Counted from the first letter of the stretch, positions 20,888-55,314 are shown. The stretch: DNA of 64,000 bases from Promethearchaeota archaeon (GCA_048941265.1 JBHLNT010000001.1:21974-85973); one strand, 5' to 3'. The notes: a model not told the origin generated them from the sequence alone. Program-made: numbers and translations.

Positions 20888-21514
20888 ATGCCAAAATCGG
20901 ATGATTTGAATCAGGGAGATATTGCTAAGTTGATTGAAAATTTAAATGAAAAAATGAACGGATTTTCTTCAATCATTCAAAAGTTCGGATTAGATATTAT
21001 TACAAAAATGGGGCAAACTAATTCTAAAATAAAAGTACTTTCTGATAAAGTAGATAAACTTGATAAGACTACTTTAGATTTAAAGGCATTACTTCCAAAA
21101 TTAACCAATATTATAGATAATCAAAATATTTTGGAATCAGAAATCGATCTTATAAAATCCTTAATTCAAAGAACGAGTACTTCAATGCCACAGAATGAGC
21201 TTGAAAGAGAGATTGAAAGAGACGAATCTATTACAATGAATAAACAAGAAGTCACTGACCAATTTAAAGAATTACTGAAAATTTTAAATGATACAGAAGA
21301 GAACCAAAAGATTAAAAAAGAATTACAGAAAATAAAGGAAAATATCTTTGAATTTACTGGAGGTCATAAAATTCTTTATGAAATTTCGCAAGTTTTGAAC
21401 AAAATGAATAATGATCAATCCATTTCCGAAAGTTTGAGAAAGGAACTTAAGGAAAAAATCGAATTTTGGATTGTTAAGTTGCAAAGCACACCATTTAAAA
21501 AAGCAATAAAGTAG
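20888..21514 (+). CDS. hypothetical coiled-coil protein
   Basis: Charged, heptad-rich 208-aa ORF lying between the two GTPase genes. No enzymatic motif is visible. Confidence 0.5.
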   Translation: MPKSDDLNQGDIAKLIENLNEKMNGFSSIIQKFGLDIITKMGQTNSKIKVLSDKVDKLDKTTLDLKALLPKLTNIIDNQNILESEIDLIKSLIQRTSTSMPQNELEREIERDESITMNKQEVTDQFKELLKILNDTEENQKIKKELQKIKENIFEFTGGHKILYEISQVLNKMNNDQSISESLRKELKEKIEFWIVKLQSTPFKKAIK

Positions 21515-21565
21515 AAATACTATAATTCAAAAAGTGGTAAAATATTTAAAATAAAAATTGATTAA

Positions 21566-22135
21566 TTATCCCTTAGTTCTATATGTAAATACTAAGTTAG
21601 CAATCTTTTCAAAGATTTCATTAACGCCATTTCCCGTTAACGCAGAAGTTTCGAAATAAGGTGCATTTAATTCCTCGCTAAGGTGATTTGCCATGGGGAG
21701 GATAATCTTTCTTTCATCCTTTAAATCGATTTTATTTCCGACTAAAATTCGGGGTATCGCGCTAAGTCCATATTTTACTGTGGTATTGTACCAATTCTTA
21801 ACATTTGAGAATGTGGAACTTCTCGTAACATCGAATACAAGCATCATACCATCAGCTCCATTAAAATACGGTTTATGCAGCATGTAGAATTGGGGCTGTC
21901 CTGCAACGTCCCAGAGCATTAGATTTACTAAAGCCTCTGCACCTTTATCTTTAACTATGACTTGCTCCTTGACAATATTAACACCTACAGTCGGAATATA
22001 TTGCGTCTTAAATTTTTTTGTAGCAAATTTTGTTAGGAGGCTTGTTTTTCCAACCGCCGGATCACCAACCACGATTACCTTAAAGATAGATTCAGTCTTT
22101 CCTTGAAATACTATATCTTCATCTTTTTTCGACAT
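21566..22135 (-). CDS. Rab/Ras-like small GTPase
   Basis: G1 VVGDPAVGKTSLL, switch I YIPTVGVNI, G3 WDVAGQPQF, G4 GNKIDL and G5 ETSALTG. There is no C-terminal Cys prenylation motif. Confidence 0.85.
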   Translation of the reverse strand: MSKKDEDIVFQGKTESIFKVIVVGDPAVGKTSLLTKFATKKFKTQYIPTVGVNIVKEQVIVKDKGAEALVNLMLWDVAGQPQFYMLHKPYFNGADGMMLVFDVTRSSTFSNVKNWYNTTVKYGLSAIPRILVGNKIDLKDERKIILPMANHLSEELNAPYFETSALTGNGVNEIFEKIANLVFTYRTKG

Positions 22136-39394: not shown

Positions 39395-40162
39395 TTACCC
39401 AATATTTGATTTATCTTTAAAGTGGTATAGTATTGCAAGGTTATTCCATGCGATTTCATATTTCGAATCAATTTTTAAGGCTTGTTTAAATGCAGATATT
39501 GCTTTTTCAGCTTCATCTATATTTTTATATGCTATACCAAGTTTATTCCAAACAGTCTTATTGTTCGGATTAATATTTAACGAGCGTTTGAAGAATTTTA
39601 TAGCATTTAGAAAGTCATTTTTATTGAAATAATAGATACCTATTTTCTTCCATATTTTTCCGTTAATAGTATTTATATTAAATTCCTGCTTTCCCGGATT
39701 TAATGCCTCATATAATTTGTTTATACGTTTAAGATCTAAGCCATAATAATTCCATTCATTAAATAATTCGGATTTAATTATCATAGCGTGTTCATGAGCC
39801 TTGCTTGCTTTATAAAAATCTCCTATTTTAGTATAAACCTCACTGAGATTTGCCCATCCACTCTTGTTATTGGGATCTATCTCAAATATCCTTTTAAAAA
39901 CCTCAATCGCCTTATTGTAATCATGATTATCAAGATAAACCTCCCCTAAAGCATTGAGAATTTTCATGTTTTTGGGATCAATTTGTAATAAATATTTGAA
40001 AATCTCAATGGATTTTTCAAACATTTTCGCGTATTTATACGCTAATCCAAGGTTAAACCAGATTGGCAAATTTTTTGTGCCCATTTTTAATGCATTACTA
40101 ATAACACTAAGTTTAATTTCTGGGTTTTTCTTGTTTTTCTCAGATTTAATTTCAATGGACAT
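39395..40162 (-). CDS. TPR repeat protein
   Basis: Repeated 34-aa units with the W/Y..LG..Y......A...F..AL.I.P.N pattern (e.g. AWNNLAILY, VWNKLGIAYKNIDEAEKAISAFKQALKIDS). Confidence 0.8.
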   Translation of the reverse strand: MSIEIKSEKNKKNPEIKLSVISNALKMGTKNLPIWFNLGLAYKYAKMFEKSIEIFKYLLQIDPKNMKILNALGEVYLDNHDYNKAIEVFKRIFEIDPNNKSGWANLSEVYTKIGDFYKASKAHEHAMIIKSELFNEWNYYGLDLKRINKLYEALNPGKQEFNINTINGKIWKKIGIYYFNKNDFLNAIKFFKRSLNINPNNKTVWNKLGIAYKNIDEAEKAISAFKQALKIDSKYEIAWNNLAILYHFKDKSNIG

Positions 40163-40312
40163 CTCTTACCAATTTTAAAAGATTTTCGAGTTTTTGATAT
40201 TTTTTTAGATTTAACTATTTAAAGACGCATTATTTTGATTAAAAATCAGAAAGATAAATAAGAACCATTCGCAGTTTGACTTTTATATGATAAAACAAAG
40301 AACCGTTAAATC

Positions 40313-41275
40313 TTATTTATAATTTATGATAACTACACCTATTAGCACGATTATTGCCCCGATAATATTCAATAGGAGTATGGTCTCCGTTCTTTGAAAT
40401 AGAAAGGAAAATATTAGTGTAATAAATGGCTCTATATATAAAAATGATGCGACCTTTGATGATTGAAGCTTTTTTTGGGAGTAATTCCAGGTATAATATC
40501 CAAATACAAAGCAAATTAATCCTAAATAAATTCCGCATAGTAAAAGTATAATATTTAGGAAATTAATAAGAAAAATATAAAGCTGATTGCTTATTACAAC
40601 AAAAATGAACAGCTCTAAGCAACCCAAATAGCAAATATATTTTAATATTTTAAAATCTGATTGAATATCATGAAATTTTTCTAAGTGCTTAATAATGGTT
40701 GAATAAGTTGCCCACAATATAGGTGTAAGTAAAATGAATACATATCCAATAAATGATGGTGATGCAGGGGTAAATTTTGATATATCACCTCCCGTAATTA
40801 AGAAATATGAGCCTACTGAGGCCAATAGAAAACCAACAATTTTTAATTTGTTTAATTTTTCTTGAAAAAAAATTAGTGAAAATACCGCAATTATTACTGG
40901 TGAAACAAGGCAATCATATAATGCGGGAATTGAAGGTCCGATTAACTCAACGGCAGAATATAAAAAAAAGAGATAAAGTGAGATTCCTGAAAAACTCGCT
41001 AATACAATTAAAATCCAAAAATTTAACGATGGCATAGAGTCTATTTCCTGAACTTGAATTTGGGGTATCTTGCATTTTTTTCTCAATTTAAGATAGATAT
41101 CTAAAATTAAGAATGATAACGAGGCTACAAATAAACGATATAATGCTACTGATAATGGCGGGATGTATTCAACTGCTATATGAACTATTATAAATGAGAT
41201 ACCCCAAAAGGTAATCATAAGAATTAATAAAACATAAACGAATATAACCTTAAAATTAAAAGAATTAGGATTCAT
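40313..41275 (-). CDS. EamA/DMT-family transporter (tandem paralog 2)
   Basis: Ten hydrophobic helices. Shares the blocks SVALYRLFVASLSFLILDIYLK, FQEKLNKLKIVGF and ASFLYIEPF with the upstream paralog. Confidence 0.75.
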   Translation of the reverse strand: MNPNSFNFKVIFVYVLLILMITFWGISFIIVHIAVEYIPPLSVALYRLFVASLSFLILDIYLKLRKKCKIPQIQVQEIDSMPSLNFWILIVLASFSGISLYLFFLYSAVELIGPSIPALYDCLVSPVIIAVFSLIFFQEKLNKLKIVGFLLASVGSYFLITGGDISKFTPASPSFIGYVFILLTPILWATYSTIIKHLEKFHDIQSDFKILKYICYLGCLELFIFVVISNQLYIFLINFLNIILLLCGIYLGLICFVFGYYTWNYSQKKLQSSKVASFLYIEPFITLIFSFLFQRTETILLLNIIGAIIVLIGVVIINYK

Positions 41276-42200
41276 AATTAATAATTACTACCGCGATTAA
41301 AACGATTATACCTCCTATTATGTTCCAAACTACAATGACTTCACTTCTTTGAAGTATAAAGGAGAAGAATAGAGTTAAGAATGGTTCAACATAGAGAAAT
41401 GAAGCTACCTTAGCGGATTTTAAGTTTTTTTGCGAATATTGCCAAATATAATAACCAATAACATAGCATCCTACACCTAAATAAAGTGCACATAACAAAA
41501 TCAAAATATTAAAGAAATTTGAAATAAAAATGTATAATTCTCCATTAATTATGACTAATATAAATAACTCAATGGTGCCAAGATAAGCAGTATATTTTAA
41601 TAATTTAATGTTAGATTTTTTTCTCGTAATTTTTTTTGTAACTGTGGCATATACAGCCCACAATAATGGAGTTGAAAGAGCCAAAATATAGCCTATGAAG
41701 TTAGGAGATTGCGGAGTGAGATTTTCAATATTTCCCCCCGTAACCAAGAAAAAACCGCCAATTGAGGCAATAATAAAACCAGCTATTTTAAGACTAGTTA
41801 ATTTTTCATTAAAAAAAATTAAAGCTAATAAAGTAATAATAACCGGAGCTAACAAACACACAAATAAGGCTGGTAATGAGGGGCCAATCAAACTTATTGC
41901 AGTGTATTGAGCAAAAAAGAAGAGAGAAATACCAGCAAAGCTAGCTATTACAATTAAAGTCCAATCATTTTCATTGAATTTGACATTATCCTCTTTTTGT
42001 TGTTTATTATTTACTCCTTTTTTTTTATTAATTTTTAAGTAAATATCAATGATTAAAAACGATAATGATGCTACTATGAAGCGGTATAGTGCTATTGATA
42101 ATGGAGGAATGTAATCTAAAGCAATATCCGCGAGGATAAAAGAAAAACCCCAGATAACAATCATTAAAAGTAGTAGAATATAAATCAATAACATCGTCAA
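41265..42200 (-). CDS. EamA/DMT-family transporter (tandem paralog 1)
   Basis: Colinear with 40313-41275 (SIALYRFIVASLSFLIIDIYLK, FNEKLTSLKIAGF, ASFLYVEPF). An 11-nt overlap links the two genes. Confidence 0.75.
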   Translation of the reverse strand: MTMLLIYILLLLMIVIWGFSFILADIALDYIPPLSIALYRFIVASLSFLIIDIYLKINKKKGVNNKQQKEDNVKFNENDWTLIVIASFAGISLFFFAQYTAISLIGPSLPALFVCLLAPVIITLLALIFFNEKLTSLKIAGFIIASIGGFFLVTGGNIENLTPQSPNFIGYILALSTPLLWAVYATVTKKITRKKSNIKLLKYTAYLGTIELFILVIINGELYIFISNFFNILILLCALYLGVGCYVIGYYIWQYSQKNLKSAKVASFLYVEPFLTLFFSFILQRSEVIVVWNIIGGIIVLIAVVIINYES

Positions 42201-43386: not shown

Positions 43387-46107
43387 CTATTGATACTTTT
43401 TCTTAAGATATTTATCAATAGCTTTCGCTGTTCTTTTTCCAGCACCCATGGCAGATATCACAGTAGCACTCCCAGTTACTATATCTCCACCAGCAAATAC
43501 ACCCTCTAGGTTGGACTGACCATTCTCATCAATTTCAATATAACCCCTTTTATTTAATTTTAGATCAGGGATTGTTTTGATGAGAGTTGGATTGGCTCTA
43601 GTTCCAATAGCAATGATAATTGTGTCTGTTTCTATTAGATACTCTGAGCCCTGAATTGATATGGGACGCCTTCTCCCAGATTCATCAGATTCTCCTAACT
43701 CCATCTTAATTACTTCCATAAACCTTACATTAGCATTCTCATCCCCTAAGAACCGTACTGGATTTGTTAAAAATTTGAACTCAATCCCTTCCTCTTTAGT
43801 ATGATGATATTCCTCTTTTCTTGCTGGCATTTCTACTTCGGATCTTCTATAGACGATAACGACTTTCTCCGCACCTAACCTGAGCGCTGTTCTTGCGGAA
43901 TCTAAAGCTACGTTACCTCCTCCTATAACAGTTACTATTTTGCCAATTTTAATTGGTGTATCATAATCAGGAAATCTATAAGCTTTCATTAAATTTGATC
44001 TTGTAAGAAATTCATTTGCCGTTAAAACACCGTTTAAATTTAATCCCTCAACATCCATAAGTATCGGTAATCCTGCACCAACTCCTATAAAAAATGCTTT
44101 AAATCCCATTTCTTTTAAATCCTCAAGATCTAAGGTCTTACCAATAAGAGTATTATATTGAATTTTGACATTTAGCATTTTTAATGTTTCAATTTCATCA
44201 TTTACAATTTCTTTTGGCAATCTAAATTCAGGGATGCCATAGGTGAGCACACCACCTCCAGTATGGAATGCTTCAAAAATGGTAACATCATATCCTTCCA
44301 TCGCTAATGTTCCGGCACATGTTATACCAGCAGGGCCTGAACCAATTACAGCAACTTTAATATCATTAGGGAGTTTACAATCAGGACATTCTTTAAGTCT
44401 ATTAGTTCTTTCCCAATCAGCAATAAATCTCTCCAAATAACCTATAGCTATAGGCTCTCCCAAAGTATTTAATATACAAGTTTGTTCACATTGTATCTCC
44501 TGTGGACATACTCTTCCACAAATCGCAGGTAATAAATTGCGTGATTTAATTTCTCGAAGTGCTTCAAAATATTTCTCTTCTTTTAAAAGATTTATAAATT
44601 TAGGAATTCTAATCTTTACAGGACACCCTTCTACACAAAGAGGTTTACCACATTGTAAACACCTATAGGTTTCTAATTTAACCATCTCTGTAGTTAAACC
44701 CTTAGAAACTTCTTCAAAGTTTGTAATTCTTATATCTGATTCTTGCTCAATCATGTAAGGCCTATGAAGCTTTCTATATTTATTAATTTTCGACTCCGCT
44801 ATTCCACTAAGATTAATAAAATTTTTATTATCCTCCTGCATTTCGCGTGCAATAATCATATTCAGATCTAATGCTTTTTGAAAAAATTCTGCACCCTTTT
44901 CAGTTCGAATTATCACAGTAGACCATCCATTCCCAGATCCAGCAGAGCCAACTGAAATATCGGCTTGTTCAGCTGTAAAATCATCACAATAGAAACAACC
45001 AAATCGACCATATTTTTTAATTCTTTCTATTGGTATATCATAAACTTTGTTATTTTTATTATAGATAATAAATCTCTCTTTAGTGATGTCCATCTTCTTG
45101 ATATCCCCCGGTCTACGTAGAAACTCGTTCTTTAAAAGTTCCACAATTTTCACATAGTCAAACGATTCCATGCAAAAAACTCCGATCTTAATTACAATAT
45201 TGTCATAAAATGATTTATTTAATGGATAGAAAGACATTTTTTTTAGTGCCTCCATTATACAAGGAGTGCCCACCACAGCAATATTCTGGTAATCCTTTAA
45301 ATCATGTAAAATCTTTAAAGTAGGAGAATTTGTATATTTAGTACCCGCAGTTTTTAAAAGATCTTGTTCATTTTCGATAAATACTGGCATAGGTTTTAAT
45401 GGTTCTACTGCAGTTCCAATAGCTAAAGCTCCATTAATCAACTTTTGTTGAAACGCCATTTTTAATAATGATGTGACTACTCCCCCATCTTGAGCAACTC
45501 TTTTTATTTGAGTATTAGTTGTTTGAGCTATGTAGATATTATGATAGTAATTAAATTGTTCCAAATACTTTAAAACTGTAGAGCTGCTTTTTTGAGATCT
45601 TTTTAAAGTCATAGGAAAGAAAGCTCGTGGACAACAAGTATAACATAATCCACAATCAATGCAAGCATCGTAATCAATTTCAAAAGTACTCTCATCATAA
45701 GCTATAGCTTCTATAGGACAGATTGATACACATAATCCACAGCCACAACAAAGATACGTTTCTCTAATTAAGGAAGCATTAGGAAAAATTCTCTTTTTTT
45801 CAAATTCATCAATTTTTTCTTGGAAGAATCTCGGATTTTTACCAACATTTTCTAATAATCCTAATTCTTTTAAATACTCTAAATTATAGATTAAAAATTG
45901 TCTGGATAGATTTAATTCATTTTTAAGATTTTGAATGTCTATAATACCATGTTCCTTGATTTTTTCTAGAATTCTATATCTCTCTTGCTCAGCATCAATT
46001 ACAGATTTAATGAAATTTTCATATTCAATTTCATTATATTTTCCTGCTTTTAGGATTTTATTTTTATTATTTAAAAGTATTTGGATTAAAGGAGTCTGTT
46101 CTTCCAT
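43387..46107 (-). CDS. multidomain oxidoreductase: wHTH-like N-terminus + 2x[4Fe-4S] ferredoxin + FrhB/FdhB-like (F420/flavin-binding) domain + NfnB/GltD-like NAD(P)H-flavin oxidoreductase (copy 2)
   Basis: Ferredoxin region is CCGCGLCVSICP...CIDCGLCYTCCP. FrhB-like region is VAQDGGVVTSLL, VVGTPCIMEALKK and CDDFTAEQADISVGS. GltD/NfnB-like region is RCLQCGKPLCVEGCP...ICGRVCPQEIQCEQTC, VAVIGSGPAGITCA, VIGGGNVALDSARTALRLGA and VFAGGD. Confidence 0.8.
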   Translation of the reverse strand: MEEQTPLIQILLNNKNKILKAGKYNEIEYENFIKSVIDAEQERYRILEKIKEHGIIDIQNLKNELNLSRQFLIYNLEYLKELGLLENVGKNPRFFQEKIDEFEKKRIFPNASLIRETYLCCGCGLCVSICPIEAIAYDESTFEIDYDACIDCGLCYTCCPRAFFPMTLKRSQKSSSTVLKYLEQFNYYHNIYIAQTTNTQIKRVAQDGGVVTSLLKMAFQQKLINGALAIGTAVEPLKPMPVFIENEQDLLKTAGTKYTNSPTLKILHDLKDYQNIAVVGTPCIMEALKKMSFYPLNKSFYDNIVIKIGVFCMESFDYVKIVELLKNEFLRRPGDIKKMDITKERFIIYNKNNKVYDIPIERIKKYGRFGCFYCDDFTAEQADISVGSAGSGNGWSTVIIRTEKGAEFFQKALDLNMIIAREMQEDNKNFINLSGIAESKINKYRKLHRPYMIEQESDIRITNFEEVSKGLTTEMVKLETYRCLQCGKPLCVEGCPVKIRIPKFINLLKEEKYFEALREIKSRNLLPAICGRVCPQEIQCEQTCILNTLGEPIAIGYLERFIADWERTNRLKECPDCKLPNDIKVAVIGSGPAGITCAGTLAMEGYDVTIFEAFHTGGGVLTYGIPEFRLPKEIVNDEIETLKMLNVKIQYNTLIGKTLDLEDLKEMGFKAFFIGVGAGLPILMDVEGLNLNGVLTANEFLTRSNLMKAYRFPDYDTPIKIGKIVTVIGGGNVALDSARTALRLGAEKVVIVYRRSEVEMPARKEEYHHTKEEGIEFKFLTNPVRFLGDENANVRFMEVIKMELGESDESGRRRPISIQGSEYLIETDTIIIAIGTRANPTLIKTIPDLKLNKRGYIEIDENGQSNLEGVFAGGDIVTGSATVISAMGAGKRTAKAIDKYLKKKYQ

Positions 46108-46155
46108 TTTTAGATACCTTAACTTTAATCTAAGATACCTTACTTTTGTACTTTT

Positions 46156-48897
46156 CTAATGTTTTTTGAAATATTTACTCTTTAGATATTTATCAATAGA
46201 TTTCGCAGCCCTTTTTCCAGCTCCCATAGCGGAAATTACAGTAGCACTTCCAGTTACTATGTCTCCCCCCGCAAATACTCCTTCTAAATTAGTTTGACCA
46301 TTCTCATCAATTTCTATGTAACCCCACTTATTTAATTTTAATTCTGGAATCGATTTAGTTAGAATGGGATTGGCTCTGGTTCCAATAGCAACAATGATCG
46401 TGTCGGTTTCTATTAAAAATTCTGAACCTTGAATTGGTACGGGGCGCCTTCTTCCAGATTCATCAGGTTCTCCTAATTCCATTTTAATTACTTCCATAAA
46501 CCTTACATTAGCATTCTCATCACCTAAAAATCTTACTGGATCTGTTAAAAAATTGAATTCAATCCCCTCTTCTTTAGCATGATGATATTCTTCTTTTCTT
46601 GCTGGCATTTCTACTTCTGACCTTCTATAAACGATAATTACTCTATCTGCACCAAGCCTGAGGGCGGTTCTTGCTGAATCCAAAGCTACATTGCCTCCTC
46701 CTATAACAGTAACAGTTTTTCCAATTTTGATGGGAGTATCATAATCAGGAAATTTGTATGCTTTCATCAGATTTGCCCGTGTAAGAAATTCATTTGCCGT
46801 TAATACCCCGTTTAAATTTAATCCATTCACCTTTATAAACATCGGTAATCCTGCACCAACTCCTAAAAAAAATGCTTTAAATCCCATTTCTTTTAAATCC
46901 TCAAGTTCTAAAGTCTTTCCTATTATAGCATTATAGTGAATTTTCACATTTAGCATCTTTAATGTTTCAATTTCATCTTTTACAATTTCTTTTGGTAATC
47001 TAAATTCAGGTATTCCATAGGTGAGTACCCCTCCTCCAGCATGGAATGCTTCAAAAATAGTAACATCATAGCCTTCCATCGCAAGTGATCCAGCGCATGT
47101 TAAACCTGCTGGACCTGAACCAATTATTGCTACCTTTATACCATTGGGAGGTTTACAATCTGGACATTCTTTAAGTTTATTATTTCTTTCCCAGTCAGCA
47201 ATAAATCGTTCTAAATAACCTATAGCAACAGGTTCACCCAAATCGTTTAATAAACATTGTTTTTCACATTGAATTTCTTGAGGGCAAACTCTTCCACAAA
47301 TCGCAGGTAATAGATTTCGTGATTTAATTTCGTGAATAGCTTCTATAAATTTCTCTTCTCTTAAGAGTTTTATAAAGTTAGGGATTCTGATATTTACAGG
47401 ACAGCCAATAATACATTGAGGATTCCCACATTGCAAGCATCTCTGAGTTTCTAATCTTATCATCTCTAAAGTTAAACCTTTAGGAACTTCTTCAAAATTA
47501 GTGGTTCTAATACTTGGCTCTTGTTCAATCATTTTTGGTCTGTGTAGCGTCTTATACATCTTTAACTTAGACTTTGCTATCCTACTTAGAGATTTAAAAC
47601 TTTTACTTTCTTCATCTATTTTCTTATTTATTATCATGTGGGATTCGATTGCTTTTTGAAAAAACTCGGCCCCTTTTTTTGTACGAATAATTACTGTTGA
47701 CCAACCTGGTTCGGAACCAATAGAACCAACCGAAATATCGGCTTGTTCTGATGTTAAATCATCACAGAAGAAACATCCAAATCTAGCATATTTCTTGATT
47801 CTTTTTATGGGAATATCAAACATAGAATCATTATTTTGATATATGATTAATTTTCCCTGATTGATATCCATTTTTCTAATATCTTTTGGAGATTGGTGGA
47901 ACTCATTCTTTAACATTTTAATGATATTCTCATAATCAAATGATTCCATACAAAATAAACCTATTTTAAGAACAATGTTATCATAAAATGGCTTATTATT
48001 GGGATAAAATGTGAGTTTCTTTAGGGCTTCCATTATACATGGAGTTCCTACAACTGCCAATCTTTTAATATTCCTGTATCCGTGAAGGATTTGCAGCATT
48101 GGAGAATTTGTATATTTAGTTCCTGCTGTTTTTAAGAGATCTTCCTCATTTTCAATTAATAAAGACCGTGGTTCCAGTGGTTGATCTCCTAATCCTACAG
48201 CTAGAGCTCCATCTATTAAATTTTGTTGAAAGGCCATTTTAAGCAGTGTAGTAACTATTCCACCATCTTGAGCAACTTTCTTTATACGAGAATCAGTGGT
48301 TTGGGTGGTATAAATTTCTTGAAAGTAATTTATTTGTTCTAAATATTTAATGTTAGGAATATTTTCTTGGGATCTTTTCATTTCCATAGGAAAAAAGGTA
48401 CGTGGACAACACGCATAGCATAGTCCACAATCAATACATATTTTATCATCAATTTCAAAAGTTCCTTTACCGTAACTAATTGCATCAACAGGGCAGACTG
48501 AAACGCATAAACCACAGCCACAACAGAGCTTTTTCTCTCTAATTATTAAAGCGTTAGGGAAGATTTGATTTTTTTTGAATATATCAATTGTCTCTTGAAA
48601 AAATCTTGGTGTTTCGCCAATAAAATTTAAACATCCACATGCCTTTAGATATTCAATGTTGTATAATAGCGTTTTTTCAGATAAATTTAACTCTTTTCTC
48701 AATCTTTCAATATCTAATGTTCCTAATTCTTCAATTTTTTTTAAAATTAAAGTTCTCTCTCTTTCGGCTTGAGATAATGAATTAACTAAGTCGTTGTATT
48801 CCGTTTCATTATATTTTCCAGCATGTAGTATTTTTTCTTTATTATTAATTAACAAATTAATTAAAGCAACTTCTCTTTCCATTTTAAGATGCCTCAC
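46156..48897 (-). CDS. multidomain oxidoreductase: wHTH-ferredoxin-FrhB-NfnB/GltD fusion (copy 1)
   Basis: Same architecture and motifs as 43387-46107. By alignment with the paralog (MEEQTPLIQILL vs MEREVALINLL), the second Met (48882) is the more likely start, leaving 1 nt between it and the upstream stop codon. Confidence 0.8.
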   Translation of the reverse strand: MRHLKMEREVALINLLINNKEKILHAGKYNETEYNDLVNSLSQAERERTLILKKIEELGTLDIERLRKELNLSEKTLLYNIEYLKACGCLNFIGETPRFFQETIDIFKKNQIFPNALIIREKKLCCGCGLCVSVCPVDAISYGKGTFEIDDKICIDCGLCYACCPRTFFPMEMKRSQENIPNIKYLEQINYFQEIYTTQTTDSRIKKVAQDGGIVTTLLKMAFQQNLIDGALAVGLGDQPLEPRSLLIENEEDLLKTAGTKYTNSPMLQILHGYRNIKRLAVVGTPCIMEALKKLTFYPNNKPFYDNIVLKIGLFCMESFDYENIIKMLKNEFHQSPKDIRKMDINQGKLIIYQNNDSMFDIPIKRIKKYARFGCFFCDDLTSEQADISVGSIGSEPGWSTVIIRTKKGAEFFQKAIESHMIINKKIDEESKSFKSLSRIAKSKLKMYKTLHRPKMIEQEPSIRTTNFEEVPKGLTLEMIRLETQRCLQCGNPQCIIGCPVNIRIPNFIKLLREEKFIEAIHEIKSRNLLPAICGRVCPQEIQCEKQCLLNDLGEPVAIGYLERFIADWERNNKLKECPDCKPPNGIKVAIIGSGPAGLTCAGSLAMEGYDVTIFEAFHAGGGVLTYGIPEFRLPKEIVKDEIETLKMLNVKIHYNAIIGKTLELEDLKEMGFKAFFLGVGAGLPMFIKVNGLNLNGVLTANEFLTRANLMKAYKFPDYDTPIKIGKTVTVIGGGNVALDSARTALRLGADRVIIVYRRSEVEMPARKEEYHHAKEEGIEFNFLTDPVRFLGDENANVRFMEVIKMELGEPDESGRRRPVPIQGSEFLIETDTIIVAIGTRANPILTKSIPELKLNKWGYIEIDENGQTNLEGVFAGGDIVTGSATVISAMGAGKRAAKSIDKYLKSKYFKKH

Positions 48898-49768
48898 TTT
48901 CGTATTTTTCTAAGGCTCTGCATTCTCGATCATAGCACTCCGCTGACATTTTCTCTTGATCAAGAAATCTATTTGCGCGTTTTAAAAGATTATCAAAATC
49001 AACTATATGTCCATCAACATCTGGACCATCAACACAGGCAAAATAAATATCACCATCGAGTGTTGAAAATCGACATCCACCACACATTCCAGTTCCATCA
49101 ATCATTATTGTATTCAAAGAAACATATGTTTTTACTTTAGGAAAATTTCCAGATCCATTAGTTGTAAGAGTAACATACTTCATCATAATTAAAGGTCCAA
49201 TTGCGATAACAAGACTAATCTTCTCTCGCATAATTAGTTCCTTAAGTGGTTCAGTGACAACTCCTTTTATCCCCTCACTTCCATCGTCAGTACAGATGAT
49301 CAATTCATCACTTACTGAACGCATTTTTTCTCTCCAAAACAATAAATCCTTGTTTCTTGCACCTATTATTGTTATAATTTTATTTCCTGCTTCTTTTAAT
49401 TCCTTTGCTTGAGGATAACAAGGCGCAATTCCAATACCACCGCCTATAATGACAACCGGATATTCATATTTTTCAATATGAATTTTATTTCCAAGAGGTC
49501 CCACAATATCAAGAATCTCATCTCCCACGTTTTGATGAGAAAGTAATTTTGTACTTTTTCCAACAACTTGGACTACTATGGTTATGGTTCCCTTTTCTCG
49601 ATCATAATCTGCTATAGTTAAAGGAAACCGTTCACCCGTCTCATTAATTCTTATTAGAATAAAATTTCCTCCATGAGCTTTTCTTGATATGAGTGGCGTA
49701 TCTAATACCATTTCATATACTTGACCACTATTCCCAAGTTCTCGTTTTTCTAAAATTTTAAAAGGCAA
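48884..49768 (-). CDS. NfnA/SudB/PyrK-like FAD + [2Fe-2S] electron-transfer subunit
   Basis: ERFPLTIADYD (RxxS/T flavin motif region), IGGGIGIAPCYP (NAD(P) fold) and the C-terminal GTGMCGGCR...ACVDGP cluster motif; 294 aa. Confidence 0.8.
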   Translation of the reverse strand: MPFKILEKRELGNSGQVYEMVLDTPLISRKAHGGNFILIRINETGERFPLTIADYDREKGTITIVVQVVGKSTKLLSHQNVGDEILDIVGPLGNKIHIEKYEYPVVIIGGGIGIAPCYPQAKELKEAGNKIITIIGARNKDLLFWREKMRSVSDELIICTDDGSEGIKGVVTEPLKELIMREKISLVIAIGPLIMMKYVTLTTNGSGNFPKVKTYVSLNTIMIDGTGMCGGCRFSTLDGDIYFACVDGPDVDGHIVDFDNLLKRANRFLDQEKMSAECYDRECRALEKYESEAS

Positions 49769-49923
49769 TACTTTTTCCCCTTTTAGTTTAAAATACTTCC
49801 AAATTCTAAGAATTCTAAAATTATTTTGATTTTTTTAAATTTTTGATTATGATTTAGAAGAAAAATTCAAAAAGAAAAAACTTTTTCTGTAGTTGATATT
49901 TGAAATTTTATCTTTTTCTAAAG

Positions 49924-52680
49924 TTATAATAGCCATAACATCTTTCCTATAAATGTTGTCAAATCAATGACTTTAAGTTTATTTTTTAACTCGATATGTT
50001 CATTTAAATAACAATTAAAATGAGCTAGGCATTTTGGACAACTAACGATTAAGTATTCTGCACCTGTATCTATTGCTTCATTTATTCTCTGAGCCTGTAG
50101 AACCTTAGAATACTCATTACAGGTAATATAAGCAGCAACACCACAACAGGAAGCATCCTTTTTATTATTTTCCATTTCTTTAAATTCAATAAATGGAAGC
50201 TTCTCTAATATTTCCCGTGGAGCATCATAGATATTGCTCATTCGACCTAGTCTGCACGCATCGTGATAAGTTATTTTGATCTTCTCTCTTGGAGGAAATT
50301 TTAAGCCATCCAATAGATTTTCCTTCAGAATGTATTCAGTAATATGATAGATTTCAAAATCAAATTGAGAACTCCCCTTAAATAGTTTTTTATACTCATA
50401 CTTCCAAGTATAATATCCTTCTGCACAGCTAAATATTATTGTCTTAACGCCAGCATCTTTAAACAATTGGACGTTATATTTCGCCAATTTTTCAAAGGTA
50501 TTTATATCTCCAACCCAAAGACTATCATGTCCACAGCATTTTTCTTCTGGTAAAACAACCGGGATAATATCTTTTTGATTTAGAAGTCCTATTACTGCTT
50601 TAGGTATTTCTAAATAATCTAAAAGATTTCGATAATGAATATTTGGATGTTCGCCATAATGACAATGTTGGATATTTGATTCATCACAAGCATTAGAATA
50701 AGCAGTAAGATCTTGATCAGTGCTGCAACAAATATTACAACTTAAGCACCTACTTGCTTCTTGGATTGCTTGATCTTGGCTTAGCGCGATCTCTACTTCA
50801 TCAAAAATCTTTATTCTCTCTTCAATTGGTAGCATGTCCATATCTTGTCTAAAAGCCGCTTGAGCGTATTTTTTGGGCATGGGGGATATTTTGGAATCAC
50901 CCTTTCTGACCCTATTTTTCCGTAAATCGATGCCCTTCAAAAAACGATCAATTGAAACAGCAGCTTCATAACCATTTCCTATGGCTTTAATCGCTATACC
51001 CTTCCCTCCAATTATATCTCCACCCGCAAAAACTCCAGGAACATTGGTTTCTAAAGTTATATCATCAGCTTGAATATTACCCCATCTATTGATCTCTAAT
51101 TTATCTTGAAAAGCCCTTCTTACAGAAGATAATTCTGCTATTTGACCTAAAGCAAGAATCAATATATCTAAGTTCATTTTAAATTCTGAGCCCTCAATTG
51201 GAACCGGGCTTCTTCTTCCTGATTCATCAGGTTCTCCTAGCTCCATTTGAATACATTCAACTTCAATTAGATTCCCCTCTTTATCCCCGTATAGTTTCAC
51301 AGGATTAGTTAGAAAGTGAAATTCTACACCTTCTTCTTTTGCGGTTTCAATTTCTTCCCTTAAGGCAGGCATTTCTCTTTCGGAGCGTCTATAAATATCA
51401 ATAACTTTTTTAGCTCCCAATCTTAGAGCTGTTCTTGCCGAATCTATTGCTGCATTTCCACCTCCTACTACACCAACGCTTTTTTCTCTGAAATCAAACT
51501 CTTTTTTTAAGATATTTCTATCTTTTAGAAAATCTAAGCTGCCCATAACATTATTAAGATCCTCACCCTCAATTTTCATTTTTCGATAATCTTGTAACCC
51601 GACTGACAGAAAAAAAGCTTTATATCCCTGATTCTTTAAATCATCATATGTTAAATTGGAACCTACTGGAGAATTTGTTTTGATTTCAACACCCATTTTT
51701 TCGATAAATTCTATCTCGTAATCTAATATATCATATGGTAATCGATATTTAGGGATACCGGCTCTGAGCATGCCCCCCTTATAGGATGATTCTTCGAATA
51801 CAGTAGGTTTATAACCCATTCTAGCTAAATAATATGCAGCTGTCAACCCTGCAGGTCCTGAACCGATTATCGCAACTTTTTCTTTAGTTTGTTTGACAGG
51901 TTCAATTTCTGATTGGTTTGGATTCTTTAATTCCCAATCTGAAATAAAGCGTTTTAATGCCCGGATAGCGACAGGATCATCAATTTCTTTTCGATTACAA
52001 TAATCTTCACAGGGCTGGGTACAAATTCGTCCACAAACTAACGGGAAAGGATTTTTTTCCCTAATTAAATCAAGAGCTTCTTGAAATTTTCCTTCACCGA
52101 TTAAAGAGACATAACCTTGAACATCAACTCCTGCTGGACATGCATTTGAGCAGGGTGCAACCGAATTCATAAAAGGGAGACATCCCATAAAATATGCTAT
52201 TTCTCCCTTATCAGTAATTTTTAAATGAGTATCATCCAAAAACCCAATTTTATTATATATCTCAATTTCGTCATTAGCCATTAAATAAGGCAAATTTGAA
52301 TATAATCTGCCATGATGACACTCCAGTTGTTGATTTTGGAGGGGCTCATACTCAGTAGCTAATGAACGTAATTCTAAAATTATCTCTGGGATATTAACCC
52401 CTACGTTATCCTTAGTCATTGGGCAATACTCCATGCACTCCCCACAAGTTAAACAATACCAAATATTGTGCTTCTCTAATACCTCTTCTGGAGGTAGAAA
52501 TGTTAAATCATTGATTAAATCCCTTGGATGAAATATTCCTAAATAAGACAAGGGACATACATTCACGCATCTGTTACAATTAAAGCAATAATTTGCTGCA
52601 GCTCTCACCTTTTCAATAAATTCCTTTGAAATAATTTTTTTTTCCTTATTATGAGTACTTTTATCACTTGATTCGGTCAT
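49924..52680 (-). CDS. HdrC-like 2x[4Fe-4S] + GltD/NfnB-like flavoprotein + HdrB/HdrD-type CCG-domain fusion oxidoreductase
   Basis: The N-terminus has CFNCNRCVNVCP...CLTCGECMEYCP. The middle has CSNACPAGVDV...VCGRICTQPCEDYC, VAIIGSGPAGLTAA, VVGGGNAAIDSARTALRLGA and VFAGGD. The C-terminus has CLSCNICC plus two CCG motifs (EEKCCGHDS, DASCCGVAAY). Confidence 0.8.
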   Translation of the reverse strand: MTESSDKSTHNKEKKIISKEFIEKVRAAANYCFNCNRCVNVCPLSYLGIFHPRDLINDLTFLPPEEVLEKHNIWYCLTCGECMEYCPMTKDNVGVNIPEIILELRSLATEYEPLQNQQLECHHGRLYSNLPYLMANDEIEIYNKIGFLDDTHLKITDKGEIAYFMGCLPFMNSVAPCSNACPAGVDVQGYVSLIGEGKFQEALDLIREKNPFPLVCGRICTQPCEDYCNRKEIDDPVAIRALKRFISDWELKNPNQSEIEPVKQTKEKVAIIGSGPAGLTAAYYLARMGYKPTVFEESSYKGGMLRAGIPKYRLPYDILDYEIEFIEKMGVEIKTNSPVGSNLTYDDLKNQGYKAFFLSVGLQDYRKMKIEGEDLNNVMGSLDFLKDRNILKKEFDFREKSVGVVGGGNAAIDSARTALRLGAKKVIDIYRRSEREMPALREEIETAKEEGVEFHFLTNPVKLYGDKEGNLIEVECIQMELGEPDESGRRSPVPIEGSEFKMNLDILILALGQIAELSSVRRAFQDKLEINRWGNIQADDITLETNVPGVFAGGDIIGGKGIAIKAIGNGYEAAVSIDRFLKGIDLRKNRVRKGDSKISPMPKKYAQAAFRQDMDMLPIEERIKIFDEVEIALSQDQAIQEASRCLSCNICCSTDQDLTAYSNACDESNIQHCHYGEHPNIHYRNLLDYLEIPKAVIGLLNQKDIIPVVLPEEKCCGHDSLWVGDINTFEKLAKYNVQLFKDAGVKTIIFSCAEGYYTWKYEYKKLFKGSSQFDFEIYHITEYILKENLLDGLKFPPREKIKITYHDACRLGRMSNIYDAPREILEKLPFIEFKEMENNKKDASCCGVAAYITCNEYSKVLQAQRINEAIDTGAEYLIVSCPKCLAHFNCYLNEHIELKNKLKVIDLTTFIGKMLWLL

Positions 52681-52786: not shown

Positions 52787-53536
52787 TTGGACAAAACTAT
52801 AAAAGTAAAAATAGGGATTCATTTGATATCGCAAGTCTTGGATCTCGCAAGATTTCTTTTAAATTTTATAGTTTTTGCTTTTTATGGAATCGTTTTTATT
52901 TTTTTGGCATATAGAGTTATAAAAAGAAATAGAACGAGAATTAGCTTTATAATCACAGGCTTTTACTTATCTTGTGGAACAGGTGTCATAGTAGACCTTG
53001 TTTATATCATCATTACGCCTCTTATAGAGGATTTAATACTTTTATTTTTATATTTCATTACAGTCTTCCTTTTAAGCATGTCCTTATGTTTCTTAAACTT
53101 ATTTGTTATGATGTTATATAAATCAGAAAGGATTTTTACTACACAAATTCAATTACTCTATTTATTTTTTTTTAGTATATTAATCTTAACACTTTTTCTC
53201 ATCCCTAATGCTGTTGCTATAAACGAAAGTACAGGTTGGAGACCAAAATGGAGTCTAGTATTTACGGTTCTCTTTTTGATGATTTGCACTTTTGGAGCGA
53301 TTATTCCTACTTATTATTATTCCATCAAATTATATCAAAAAATTGAAAACAAAGATTTAAGAAAAAGATGGCTCTGTTTCATTATTGGAATTTCAGGTTA
53401 TTTCTTTTTATGTTATGGTACTTCCTATTTTTGTTATTTCGGGCACGTCAATTTAATAATTTGGGCCATTATAGCTATGCCCTCCTTAATCAATTTATAT
53501 CTTATCTATTACGGTATTGGACGTCAAATGGAGTAA
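52787..53536 (+). CDS. hypothetical 7-TM membrane protein (tandem paralog 1 of 3)
   Basis: Seven hydrophobic segments. Shared landmarks with the next two genes are the (I/V)NEST.W.PKWS loop, KRW-F-IIG and the C-terminal YYG(I/V)G(R/K). Confidence 0.6.
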   Translation: MDKTIKVKIGIHLISQVLDLARFLLNFIVFAFYGIVFIFLAYRVIKRNRTRISFIITGFYLSCGTGVIVDLVYIIITPLIEDLILLFLYFITVFLLSMSLCFLNLFVMMLYKSERIFTTQIQLLYLFFFSILILTLFLIPNAVAINESTGWRPKWSLVFTVLFLMICTFGAIIPTYYYSIKLYQKIENKDLRKRWLCFIIGISGYFFLCYGTSYFCYFGHVNLIIWAIIAMPSLINLYLIYYGIGRQME

Positions 53537-53694
53537 GAATTAAACGTGTTATTTTGCAAATATTTTATTACTAAAAATAATCTATCTTTTTAAAGTAAAA
53601 GAAATTAGACATAAAAAAAATAAAAATTTTTATTACAAAAACAGTTTATTTATTATATAATTAGGGATGGGGTAAGTAATAAATATTTAGACAA

Positions 53695-54384
53695 ATGGAC
53701 GTCGCTCGATTCATTCAAATTTATATTGTTCAAGGATTAATTGGTTTGTTTTATCTTTATATGTCATATGTAATTCTAAGACGGGATAAAAAAAATCTTC
53801 ATCTTGCACTATGTGGTTTTTATGTATGTGTAGGCTTAGGAGTTATAATAAATATAATTTATGCCTCCTTTTTTGATGAAGCTCTTGTATATCTTCTTCA
53901 TTTTTTAACGTATTTTTTGCTTTGTTTTTGTCAAGTTTTCTTACTAATTTTTGTATTAATTTTAACTAAATCTAAGAATATAATTAATCTAAAAGTCCAA
54001 TTAGTTTTAATTATTACTTTTGGGATACTTCTATGTGGACTATGGTTTATCCCGAATGGAATTACGATTAATGAAACCACAAATTGGAAACCTGTTTGGA
54101 GCAGGGAATTTTTAATTTATTCTTATGCTGTTTGTACCTTGTTTACATTTGGACCTTTGATATATTATTCAACAAAGATCTATCTCAAATTAGAGAGTTT
54201 ATATTTAAAGAGAAAGTGGCTATTTTTCATAATAGGATTATTGTCTTACTACTTTCTTTATTATGGTACTTCTCTGTCAAATTCTTTAAATGATTCTGGA
54301 TTTAGATTGATATGGTCTATTATATCCCTCTTTGTAATACCATCAACATACCTTATTTATTACGGAGTCGGAAGGGAGTTATAA
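53695..54384 (+). CDS. hypothetical 7-TM membrane protein (tandem paralog 2 of 3)
   Basis: ARFIQIYIVQG, PNGITINETTNWKPVWS, LKRKWLFFIIG and LIYYGVGRE. Confidence 0.6.
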   Translation: MDVARFIQIYIVQGLIGLFYLYMSYVILRRDKKNLHLALCGFYVCVGLGVIINIIYASFFDEALVYLLHFLTYFLLCFCQVFLLIFVLILTKSKNIINLKVQLVLIITFGILLCGLWFIPNGITINETTNWKPVWSREFLIYSYAVCTLFTFGPLIYYSTKIYLKLESLYLKRKWLFFIIGLLSYYFLYYGTSLSNSLNDSGFRLIWSIISLFVIPSTYLIYYGVGREL

Positions 54385-54597
54385 TTAGTAAACTTAACTA
54401 TTATATGCATATTCATAAAGACACAGTTAAGCAGATATAATATAGACCATTAAAATAATTTTTGGTAAAAATTCTTCATATGGAATTAAGTTAAATAGAA
54501 AACTTAAATTTTTAATGGATTAGTGAGATCTTAATACTAATAATATTTTATTTAAAAATTAGAATAAATTAAGTAAAACCAGAGGGAGATCGAATTT

Positions 54598-55314
54598 ATG
54601 GTATTTTATCAATTAGATCTTGCTAGAATTATTCAAGTATACATTGTTCAAGGTTCTGTGGCAATTTTTTTTGTAATTCTCGCATATAAAATACTTAAGC
54701 GTGATACTAAAAGGTTAAATTTAATGTTTAGCTGTTTTTATTTAAGTATAACCATAGGCCTTATCGTGAATATTATTTATGTTCCTTTGACTATTGAGGC
54801 TATTGTATTAGTTCTTTACTATATTACAATCTTCTTCATTTTATTAGGACCCATATTTCTTCTTGTGGTTGAATTAATGCTGTTAAAGTCCGAAAAAGTT
54901 ATTAATACCACTAAGCAATTAACAATTATCTTAATTTATGCGATTGCATTATCTTGTATGATATTCATCCCAAATGGAGTCACTATTAATTCTAGCACAG
55001 AATGGAAACCAGTTTGGAGTATTCCTTATTTTATCTATACAATCACAGTACTCACAGTTGGAGCAATAGTACCATCTTTATATTTTTCTTACCAAATATA
55101 TAAGCAATTTGAAGATGAAAAGTTAAAGAAAAAGTGGGGATATTTCATTATTGGTCTTTATGGACTTATTTTTCTCATGTATGGTACATTGACTTCGAAT
55201 ACATTAAATGACCAAACATTTAGGACAGTATGGGCGATAATATCACTATTTTTAATCACTGTCCCCCCATATCTCGTATATTATGGAGTTGGCAAAGAGC
55301 TGGAAGCAGATTAA
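54598..55314 (+). CDS. hypothetical 7-TM membrane protein (tandem paralog 3 of 3)
   Basis: ARIIQVYIVQG, PNGVTINSSTEWKPVWS, LKKKWGYFIIG and LVYYGVGKE. Confidence 0.6.
   Translation: MVFYQLDLARIIQVYIVQGSVAIFFVILAYKILKRDTKRLNLMFSCFYLSITIGLIVNIIYVPLTIEAIVLVLYYITIFFILLGPIFLLVVELMLLKSEKVINTTKQLTIILIYAIALSCMIFIPNGVTINSSTEWKPVWSIPYFIYTITVLTVGAIVPSLYFSYQIYKQFEDEKLKKKWGYFIIGLYGLIFLMYGTLTSNTLNDQTFRTVWAIISLFLITVPPYLVYYGVGKELEAD

Follow-up and report, generated by a model that had tools for sequence, protein, structure and literature searches.

Architecture of the gene

The window analyzed here, a stretch of 64,000 nucleotides from a Promethearchaeota archaeon, contains on its minus strand (49924 to 52680) a single open reading frame (ORF) that starts with ATG and encodes a 918-residue protein, referred to below as the fusion. 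The ORF, Pfam matches, homologs, and an AlphaFold model identify it as an HdrD-type iron-sulfur (Fe-S) protein in which the first of two CCG domains (CCG1) is split by a circularly permuted module of the NfnB/GltD type. Its N terminus (MTES...) is kept across homologs, and M1 is invariant. A first-pass annotation of the window had recognized HdrC-like, GltD-like, and CCG modules in one 918-residue chain, which was borne out by Pfam, solved structures, and 105 homologs. It had also taken the host for a non-methanogen, in agreement with protein P0001 from a Promethearchaeota (Asgard) metagenome-assembled genome (MAG), which is 100% identical to the window protein. The annotation had placed the GltD-like part between the C-like and B-like parts; alignments of the spliced sequence and a 403-residue homolog show instead a permuted cassette within CCG1.

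The chain begins with an HdrC-like domain (residues 25 to 127; 52300 to 52608, on the minus strand like all parts of the gene). Its two CX2CX2CX3CP motifs (C32, C35, C38, C42 and C76, C79, C82, C86), closed by P43 and P87, are predicted to bind two [4Fe-4S] clusters. Pfam reported a Fer4 dicluster at residues 25 to 88 (E = 5e-8 to 4e-7), and the HdrC chain 5odc_C matched residues 23 to 127 (E = 3.4e-14). Since the score against the HdrC model TIGR03290 (E = 3e-12, 46.7 bits) was under the cutoff of 160 bits, the domain is HdrC-like but does not count as an equivalog of HdrC. The first strand and first cysteine of CCG1 follow at residues 158 to 172 ("GEIAYFMGC167LPF"; 52165 to 52209), as located by the spliced-sequence alignments, the 403-residue homolog, and the invariance of C167.

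The inserted cassette has three parts. Part 1 (residues 174 to 253; 51922 to 52161) is a Fer4_20 domain from its third cysteine on (E = 1.6e-24), and C177, C181, C216, C220, C224, and C228 correspond in NfnB and GltD to ligands of the module's two [4Fe-4S] clusters. Part 2 (residues 268 to 568; 50977 to 51879) comprises the FAD and NAD(P)H Rossmann domains (Pyr_redox_2, E = 3e-30, with Foldseek and motif comparison in agreement), marked by GSGPAG (273 to 278), GGGNAAID (406 to 413), and the NADPH-type IYRRSEREMPA (429 to 439). Part 3 (residues 599 to 652; 50725 to 50886) is a displaced segment, "...EERIKIFDEVEIAL..AIQEASRC645LSC648", recognized by alignment with 4ylf_B and by the reordering described below. 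A junction with extra cysteines (residues 653 to 683; 50632 to 50724), delimited by cysteine spacing in 105 members and low model confidence, leads to the rest of CCG1 (residues 684 to 790; 50311 to 50631), where Pfam and the 403-residue homolog locate an "IPKAVIGLLNQ" helix, C715-C716-G-H-D, and C752-A-E-G. The second CCG domain (CCG2; residues 800 to 892; 50005 to 50283) carries C809-x35-C845C846-x34-C881-x2-C884 and the invariant C854 and C890. Pfam found CCG (PF02754) in two stretches, the better at residues 803 to 888 (profile positions 1 to 84 of 85; E = 2.5e-25, 88.8 bits versus a cutoff of 20.6), and the score was 98.3 bits once the insert was removed. The AlphaFold model (predicted local distance difference test [pLDDT], 86.5; predicted template modeling score, 0.87) is confident over the CCG segments, and its lowest-confidence stretch is the exit junction at residues 651 to 680 (pLDDT, 53 to 72).

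The insertion point was defined by removing the cassette. Residues 1 to 170 joined to residues 683 to 918 aligned in one piece with the NCBIfam models for TfrB (E = 4.9e-42), LdhH (E = 3.6e-34), and GlpC (E = 5e-23) from residues 156 to 158 on, and the spliced host was also colinear with Mycobacterium smegmatis EtfD (9OJN_A). An uninterrupted 403-residue homolog from Hodarchaeota (L059:7992-9203) matched residues 17 to 174 (51% identity) and then residues ~684 to 918 (50% identity), bracketing an insert of ~510 residues. These alignments indicate that the cassette sits about 10 residues into CCG1, after its first cysteine, C167. Uninterrupted HdrD-like paralogs of ~400 to 418 residues are widespread in the same Asgard classes and share the cysteine set of the fusion, including equivalents of C854 and C890.

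The host is a CCG protein of the HdrD/TfrB/GlpC class with an HdrB fold and is not an HdrB or HdrD equivalog. The term HdrB-like in the first-pass annotation fits the fold, with a template modeling (TM) score of 0.64 to 0.66, but by sequence the CCG part is nearer to the HdrD/TfrB/GlpC/EtfD class, and its match to HdrB is marginal. No HdrB model in NCBIfam matched at E ≤ 0.001. The model of the uninterrupted paralog P0121 (pLDDT, 79) matched HdrB chains 5odc_B and 8rwn_B with that TM(target) score and E values of ~6e-6. The annotation's view of HdrD as a natural fusion of C and B parts was confirmed. TfrB was the best NCBIfam match of the spliced host, but scores against the neighboring families stayed far under their cutoffs (TfrB, 144 versus 385 bits; LdhH, 118 versus 800; GlpC, 81 versus 278; GlcF, 22 versus 333), and no gene for TfrA, GlpAB, GlcDE, or an LdhH N-terminal domain was found among the annotated neighbors adjoining the fusion. 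By these scores and neighbors, the fusion does not qualify as a TfrB-, GlpC-, GlcF-, or LdhH-type subunit of a known dehydrogenase.

The cassette has the features expected of NfnB and GltD, namely, a Fer4_20 domain with its ligands, an FAD-binding GxGxxG motif, and an NAD(P)H Rossmann fold, but not their N-to-C order: the "EA.RCL.C" segment stands at residues 611 to 650, behind the flavin domains. In keeping with this, the Fer4_20 match at residues 174 to 253 spans only profile positions 29 to 111 of 113. In HMMER comparison with Thermotoga maritima NfnB (4YLF_B), residues 4 to 43 of NfnB aligned with residues 611 to 650 of the fusion and residues 44 to 461 with residues 174 to 584. When the cassette was reordered (599 to 652 followed by 173 to 598), one Fer4_20 match covered profile positions 2 to 111 of 113, and its score was 101.6 bits versus 86.3 bits. 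The insert is thus an NfnB-type module that is circularly permuted relative to canonical GltD and NfnB, and it offers a clean natural case of the reuse of such a permuted redox cassette.

Both ends of the cassette fall in the loop between the second and third cysteines of the outer [4Fe-4S] motif. Because the permutation puts ligands of this cluster on both sides of the junction, the outer cluster (presumably C645, C648, C177, and C228) would lie at the seam, next to the CCG1 ligand C167.

In sequence, the cassette is colinear with StnC (8OH5_C) and the large subunits of NfnABC (9BOV_A and 9N5U_A), which were also its best sequence matches (425 to 478 bits; 478 to 9bov_A). The family profile matched solved NfnB/StnC-type chains with E values of 1e-122 to 5e-142. 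Foldseek, queried with the whole fusion model, returned only GltD-type matches, the best being 9bov_A, 9n5u_A, and 8oh5_C (E = 1e-47 to 1e-49), followed by the NfnB chains 4ylf_B and 5jca_L (TM[target], 0.82). The score against NCBIfam NF009410, "NAD(P)-binding protein," was 500.6 bits, under the cutoff of 516. Readings as glutamate synthase, dihydropyrimidine dehydrogenase (DPD), or thioredoxin reductase were rejected; these matches cover the generic flavin module only, and no large-subunit or DPD domains are present.

A motif at the nicotinamide site (residues 400 to 446; ~51343 to 51483) splits the fusion family into two subfamilies, with two copies in some MAGs. Subfamily A, which includes the window protein, has "GGGN.A.DSAR...IYRRSE.EMPA," the NADPH-type motif of NfnB and GltD. 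Subfamily B, the majority, has "GGGAVAVD...VDIL[ST]EE," with an aspartate and no arginine pair. The split suggests a cofactor switch, in which subfamily B would use NADH or have altered specificity, and a preference for NADPH is probable in subfamily A.

Cysteine conservation was scored in a MAFFT alignment of 105 full-length homologs. All eight cysteines of the HdrC-like domain were invariant, as were C167 and, in the later part of CCG1, C715, C716, and C752; the cassette's C177, C181, C216, C220, C224, and C228 and its C645, C648, and C651 were invariant or nearly so. In CCG2, C809 was present in 104 of the 105 and C845, C846, C881, and C884 were invariant or nearly so, giving the full five-cysteine motif C-x35-CC-x34-C-x2-C. 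Such motifs (CXnCCGXmCXXC) reportedly supply the ligands of a non-cubane [4Fe-4S] cluster. Other polar residues near the CCG motifs, together with H718, D719, and E754, were invariant, and so were G273, G275, G278, and G406 to G408 of the insert. We infer that the cofactor sites of the fusion are occupied.

CCG1 retains four of the five cysteines (C167, C715, C716, and C752), and its fifth position is Gly755 in all 105 homologs. Because uninterrupted paralogs lack the same cysteine ("C-A-E-G"), its loss is most simply read as a trait of the subfamily. The first-pass annotation had regarded loss of conserved CCG cysteines as grounds for giving up its interpretation. Such a loss was found in CCG1, where the uninterrupted paralogs are the same, and CCG2 is complete. 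Every one of the 105 members has at least one surplus cysteine after "RCxxC," C651 being invariant, whereas C652, C665, and C673 of the window protein vary and most members have further linker cysteines. The junction spacing CxxCx(1-2)C(C) (residues 646 to 683; 50632 to 50745) recurs in 105 of 105 members. Surplus junction cysteines might fill out the CCG1 cluster or bind metal at an additional Fe-S or zinc site, and the extra invariant cysteines C854, C890, and C651 might replace the missing ligand.

Distribution and related arrangements

More than 100 protein clusters (90% identity) matched the fusion over its full length at 55 to 86%, from Loki-, Thor-, Hermod-, Hod-, and Odinarchaeia. Annotations of these homologs read only "FAD-dependent oxidoreductase" or [quoted passage not shown] When one genome per species was scanned, the insertion-type gene turned up at ~57 distinct Asgard loci, and Dehalococcoidia/Chloroflexota, ANME-1, and Methanosarcinales yielded related genes of a different build. 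When 1.84 billion representatives (50% identity) were searched exhaustively with HMMER, one (P0039) was colinear over residues 22 to 914. The other strong matches (≤551 bits) covered the cassette alone (~residues 174 to 652), in hosts of 489 to 1504 residues. The survey of this exact domain order that the first-pass annotation had proposed thus returned a single 50%-identity cluster whose named members are all Asgard. Among named sequences the insertion architecture is confined to Asgard archaea, and, as a single representative matches colinearly, it appears to have arisen once. The cassette itself was found on at least 150 representatives (50% identity) that vary greatly in length and in where the module sits; it is highly promiscuous, with StnC, HdrA, and HdrD-like proteins among its hosts.

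The same modules occur in three independent arrangements. In one, the cassette is carried by HdrA and the HdrD-like protein is unsplit. The Hodarchaeota gene for the 403-residue homolog adjoins a gene for a 1648-residue protein (L059:9277-14223) that combines HdrA and cassette with a second HdrA and a C-terminal MvhD; its cassette, located in a ferredoxin domain, is 52% identical to the insert of the window protein. Dehalococcoidia encode an ortholog of the unsplit HdrD-like protein ("KCCGHD...SCPEGY") beside HdrA-cassette proteins and MvhD. These HdrA-cassette proteins have 909 to 1133 residues and lie in Hdr/MvhD clusters (L067:7131-10499 and L070:12065-14794). In another, represented by ANME-1 (L078), the cassette stands end to end ahead of a complete HdrD-like protein. 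Two candidates for the architecture of the fusion itself were set aside: P0112 to P0119 have the ANME-1 order, with the permuted GltD module first and a complete HdrD-like protein after it, and the ~909-residue Dehalococcoidia proteins are HdrA with an insert. In two Lokiarchaeia genomes, the uninterrupted paralog is the first gene of an hdrD-like/hdrA-like/mvhD/frhB cluster. Taken together, these gene arrangements indicate that the HdrD-like family is the HdrBC equivalent of HdrA-based systems and that NfnB-type cassettes have been recruited to such systems repeatedly.

Insertions of the GltD type in HdrA have been described as HdrA9 to HdrA11 of ANME-1 (PMC9012536) and as "type III HdrA" (PMC12054007), and their hosts were proposed to use NAD(P)H (PMC12054007, PMC9012536). 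The present survey places GltD-inserted HdrA well outside the methane-metabolizing archaea. For an insertion into an HdrD or CCG protein, no description was found in the open-access literature, an absence that is not proof of novelty.

Genomic neighborhoods

ORFs from 85 loci were clustered and annotated; the counts below refer to the ~57 distinct Asgard loci, many of which have truncated flanks. A gene for a tungsten aldehyde oxidoreductase (AFOR) adjoins the fusion gene in 39 loci, and the gene for its four-cluster polyferredoxin (HydN/WorS-like) is present in 37; relative to the fusion, both co-directional and divergent arrangements occur. An HdrA gene lies near the fusion in ~18 loci, an FrhB-like gene in 8, and an NfnA-like gene directly downstream of it in ~15. 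Two layouts could be distinguished. In type I, DUF364, small GTPases, an SNF2 helicase, and an RDH/QueG-like Fe-S protein are encoded upstream of the fusion, which is followed by AFOR, the four-cluster ferredoxin, in some cases a GNAT protein, HdrA, and the FrhB-like protein. In type II, ferredoxin, HdrA, and FrhB-like genes follow the AFOR gene in one direction, and divergently from them the fusion is followed by the NfnA-like gene and by a gene for NfnB or for a fused FrhB-NfnB protein. No separate hdrB or hdrC gene was found in the conserved neighborhoods of the fusion.

In many loci (L035 and L041, for example), the HdrA gene beside the fusion or AFOR is split into two ORFs by an in-frame TGA at "DCS(M/I)C." The in-frame TGA was confirmed at L004:6969-8783, which reads DDCSI-TGA-ILGPKM. 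The neighboring HdrA is therefore a selenoprotein, i.e., a selenocysteine HdrA, hereafter HdrA(Sec).

The window itself belongs to the type II lineage, but its AFOR side has been lost. Immediately downstream of the fusion lies a gene for an NfnA/PyrK-like FAD/[2Fe-2S] protein of 294 residues with a TTG start (48884 to 49768, minus strand), identified by Pfam and by NF004862, [quoted passage not shown] (361 bits, over the cutoff). It is 155 nucleotides (nt) from the fusion and overlaps the next gene by 14 nt. Next come two tandem FrhB-NfnB paralogs of 913 and 906 residues (43387 to 48897, minus strand), which are 74% identical in pairwise comparison and were identified by Pfam and NCBIfam. Each consists of an N-terminal segment of ~110 residues resembling a winged helix-turn-helix, two [4Fe-4S] motifs, a complete FrhB (F420/FAD-binding) domain, and NfnB in canonical order; in the 906-residue copy, the N-terminal segment weakly matches the winged-helix family SelB-wing_3 of Pfam. 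NfnA together with FrhB-NfnB resembles an enzyme of the Nfn type in which an FrhB site takes the place of the ferredoxin branch, and NfnA with FrhB-NfnB or plain NfnB is kept in ~15 Asgard loci. A relative that is 86% identical (L001) has the layout of the window with one FrhB-NfnB copy.

The NfnA-like gene raises the possibility of an NfnAB-like heterodimer with the fusion as its large subunit, in which the insert FAD would bifurcate the electrons of NADPH, one passing through NfnA to NAD+ and the other through the [4Fe-4S] clusters to the CCG and HdrC-like clusters and not to ferredoxin. The recurrence of the gene directly downstream of the fusion, in the window as in the ~15 loci, fits such a pairing, and the insert retains CGR(I/V)C, R306, and the NADPH-type motif; the window protein also has the glutamate of "PCE" after C224. 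This glutamate is alanine in most of the family, however, and most members (~40 loci) lack an NfnA gene within 8 kb. Where NfnA is present, its gene overlaps or abuts (within 1 nt) that of the following NfnB or FrhB-NfnB, a complete canonical partner to which it is translationally coupled, and is separated from the fusion by 150 to 200 nt with oligo-T tracts. In addition, the insert is nearest to the modules of StnC and NfnABC, which have no NfnA partner, and the flavin of StnC was reported to be non-bifurcating (PMC10482914). We consider an Nfn-type role for the fusion highly unlikely. Given the 14-nt overlap on one side and the 155-nt oligo-T gap on the other, the NfnA-like protein is more likely a partner of FrhB-NfnB than of the fusion.

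Within that gap (49769 to 49923), the fusion stop codon is followed by oligo-T runs (T6, T5, and T5) and then an A/T-rich stretch, and a GGGG-containing sequence resembling a ribosome-binding site precedes the TTG start of the NfnA-like gene. This arrangement is compatible with a separate transcription unit for the NfnA-like gene.

Divergently from the fusion, three consecutive ORFs of 229 to 249 residues occupy 52787 to 55314 on the plus strand. At least the first is very hydrophobic, and none had a significant Pfam match (one weak, sub-threshold match for the 229-residue ORF). Homologs of these ORFs (10 members from 6 loci) have the same divergent position in L001 and L002 and are adjacent in L031, L043, L050, and L074; they occur exactly in loci without an AFOR cluster beside the fusion. 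Downstream of the redox genes (39395 to 42200, minus strand) are two adjacent EamA-family transporter genes, a pair with the same position in L001, and a gene for a TPR-repeat protein. Farther off (20000 to 22087, minus strand) are genes for two Ras/Arf-like small GTPases, detected by tblastn with the GTPase family that flanks type I loci (35% and 34% identity). Small GTPases of this kind are common in Asgard genomes.

Proposed function and comparison with known systems

We propose, with a probability of about 0.42, that the fusion is an NAD(P)H-linked oxidoreductase of the HdrD type that works in an Hdr-like bifurcating or confurcating system, with CCG acting catalytically on a disulfide-type substrate. 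In this proposal, NAD(P)H would pass a hydride to the FAD of the insert, at a site that in the subfamily of the window protein is of the NADPH type (IYRRSE.EMPA). Single electrons would then travel over the two [4Fe-4S] clusters of the insert, the outer of which would adjoin the CCG1 ligand C167, to the CCG clusters, where a disulfide-type acceptor would be reduced or, in the reverse direction, thiols oxidized. The invariant N-terminal HdrC-like clusters would form a second port for electron exchange with a partner, for which HdrA(Sec), the FrhB-like protein, and the aldehyde oxidoreductase with its polyferredoxin are candidates in most Asgard genomes. The fusion would accordingly be the HdrBC-equivalent, NAD(P)H-linked arm of a larger system and not a free-standing reductase. 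We infer the direction of electron flow, the catalytic use of CCG, and the physical association with HdrA or AFOR. A catalytic role for CCG is favored because of the near-complete conservation of its ligands and polar residues and because of the precedents of TfrAB and HdrABC.

The first-pass annotation had read the architecture as implying that NAD(P)H is directly linked to the reduction of a disulfide or a similar substrate. Such a reaction is possible, but it is not implied: the invariant HdrC-like clusters, the related arrangements, and the synteny with HdrA(Sec), FrhB-like, and AFOR/polyferredoxin genes point to a multi-partner complex of the Hdr type. In its simplest form, the direct reaction would make the fusion a non-bifurcating NAD(P)H:disulfide or polysulfide reductase acting without a partner, with the HdrC-like domain as an internal or vestigial relay. 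All modules from NAD(P)H through FAD and Fe-S clusters to CCG are present in one chain, some loci (e.g., L003) lack redox neighbors, and TfrAB is a precedent for a simple coupling of a flavin to an HdrD-like protein. The HdrC-like clusters, however, lie off the path from NAD(P)H to CCG, yet eight of their eight cysteines are invariant, which argues for a second redox partner. The synteny with HdrA and WOR genes is also strong, and, as estimated from standard potentials, uncoupled electron transfer from NAD(P)H to a disulfide would waste ~180 mV in energy-limited anaerobes. We therefore regard a free-standing reductase as very unlikely.

Several observations weigh against the proposed function. 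CCG1, as noted, is one ligand short. The sequence match to HdrB in the Protein Data Bank is marginal (E = ~6e-4 to 3e-3) and maps to the C-terminal half of the uninterrupted paralog profile, i.e., to the CCG2 region. The P0121 model matches not only HdrB but also EtfD and LutA, neither of which is a disulfide reductase. Among the conserved neighbors, there is no gene for DsrC, TusA, LbpA (lipoate-carrier-like), or coenzyme M or coenzyme B synthesis; the thiol-cofactor or DsrC-like genes that the first-pass annotation had suggested looking for nearby were thus not found, and its caution about the identity of the substrate is upheld. No gene for AFOR, HdrA, FrhB-like protein, or MvhD lies inside the 64-kb window, so that a partner is assumed from relatives. 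Finally, the cassettes of Hodarchaeota and Dehalococcoidia sit on the ferredoxin domain of HdrA and not on CCG, and these topologies are not equivalent to that of the fusion.

Some of the same observations fit a different role, in which the CCG clusters serve as a wire that connects the HdrC-like clusters to the inserted FAD with no turnover of a disulfide. In an HdrA-type bifurcating complex of this kind, the high-potential acceptor would be NAD(P)+ and the low-potential acceptor ferredoxin, with a tungsten aldehyde oxidoreductase and polyferredoxin (a WorSL-like unit), or something else, as the donor. The reaction, 2 RCHO + Fd(ox) + NAD(P)+ -> 2 RCOO- + Fd(red) + NAD(P)H, would parallel that of bacterial WorABCSL on an Hdr basis. 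The insertion point yields a linear chain from HdrC-like clusters through CCG2, CCG1, and two [4Fe-4S] clusters to FAD. The missing CCG1 ligand, the presence of EtfD and LutA alongside HdrB among the best structural matches of the host, and the lack of a nearby thiol-carrier gene are all in line with a relay. So is the company of AFOR (39 loci) and polyferredoxin (37 loci), often with HdrA(Sec) and FrhB-like genes next to them, at loci where hdrB and hdrC are not found as genes of their own. A precedent for such a connection is known from WorSL units, which attach to a bifurcating module by which NAD and ferredoxin are reduced (PMC12318220). On the other hand, neither the window gene nor its closest relative has AFOR or HdrA nearby, gene adjacency is no proof of a physical complex, and aldehyde oxidation energetically needs no bifurcation. 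Moreover, the CCG ligands and H718, D719, and E754 are more conserved than a relay would need, although this is not decisive. On balance, a pure relay, the main rival of our proposal, seems to us somewhat unlikely.

A specific form of this idea, an Asgard complex of HdrA(Sec), FrhB-like protein, and the fusion that uses no heterodisulfide and is fed by tungsten AFOR and polyferredoxin, is in our view clearly unlikely. In such a complex, the high-potential branch of HdrA could deliver electrons through the HdrC-like and CCG clusters and the inserted flavoprotein to NAD(P)+, and the low-potential electron would go to ferredoxin. If this were true, archaea would have a counterpart of WorABCSL built on Hdr, and the presence of Hdr genes in non-methanogenic Asgard archaea would be partly explained.

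Asgard archaea are the closest known relatives of eukaryotes. They encode many Hdr-type genes, and the fusion hard-wires an NAD(P)H flavoprotein into the CCG domain of an HdrBC equivalent. The substrate of Asgard Hdr has been referred to as "an unidentified heterodisulfide compound" (PMC11291895). The fusion offers a testable handle: it is one soluble polypeptide, NAD(P)H is a convenient substrate, and candidate partners are encoded next door. It could reveal the role of Hdr in Asgard archaea and whether CCG clusters can relay electrons to a flavin.

Compared with HdrD and HdrBC (5ODC), the fusion has the same order of an HdrC-like domain with two [4Fe-4S] clusters and two CCG domains, with the five cysteines of CCG2 complete. 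It differs in that CCG1 is cut by a flavoprotein of ~510 residues and lacks its fifth cysteine, that there is no membrane partner HdrE, and that, unlike for HdrD, the host organism is not a methanogen. TfrAB consists of a flavoprotein and an HdrD-like thiol oxidoreductase. The fusion resembles TfrB, GlpC, LdhH, and EtfD in coupling a flavoprotein to an HdrD-like Fe-S protein; in those systems, the flavoprotein forms its own subunit or stands as a domain at the N terminus, and the substrate is different, whereas in the fusion an NAD(P)H module is inserted in cis.

The cassette shares with NfnB (4YLF_B and 5JCA_L) and GltD the FAD, the NADPH site with its NADPH-type YRRS, and two [4Fe-4S] clusters, at 40% identity. 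Unlike in NfnB and GltD, the first ~45 residues have moved behind the flavin domains and the module is embedded in another protein; unlike in NfnAB, partnership with NfnA is unsupported for most of the fusion family. In StnC, a GltD-like module is flanked by a [2Fe-2S] domain on one side and by the remainder of a NuoG-like protein on the other (PMC10482914). StnC and NfnABC, which are Bfu-type transhydrogenases, thus also carry a GltD module inside an Fe-S host as an NADPH port, colinear with that of the fusion through "EA.RCL.C." Their host, however, is NuoG/HydA-like and is accompanied by HydBC-like (BfuBC) subunits; the fusion has no NuoG-like domain, its cassette is flanked by HdrC-like and CCG segments, and no HydBC-like neighbor was found at its loci.

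With WorABCSL (PMC12318220) and AorABC, the fusion shares its usual neighbors, namely, genes for a WorL/AFOR-like protein, a WorS-like polyferredoxin, and a bifurcation-type flavoprotein (HdrA), and NAD(P) and ferredoxin are plausible co-substrates of its system as well. The bifurcating module would be of the Hdr type, in contrast to BfuABC, and the genes of this putative system are absent from the window. A further parallel is type III HdrA, in which a permuted NfnB-type cassette is likewise inserted between the Fe-S ligands of an Hdr-system protein and a link to NAD(P)H has been proposed. There, the host is HdrA, the HdrD or HdrBC partner is unbroken, and the published cases come from methane and alkane metabolizers. 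The fusion contains no HdrA segment within its 918 residues; its host is the CCG1 domain of an HdrD-like protein, and HdrA is encoded separately. GltD in HdrA has already been published; a GltD/NfnB cassette in an HdrD/CCG host would be the new element.

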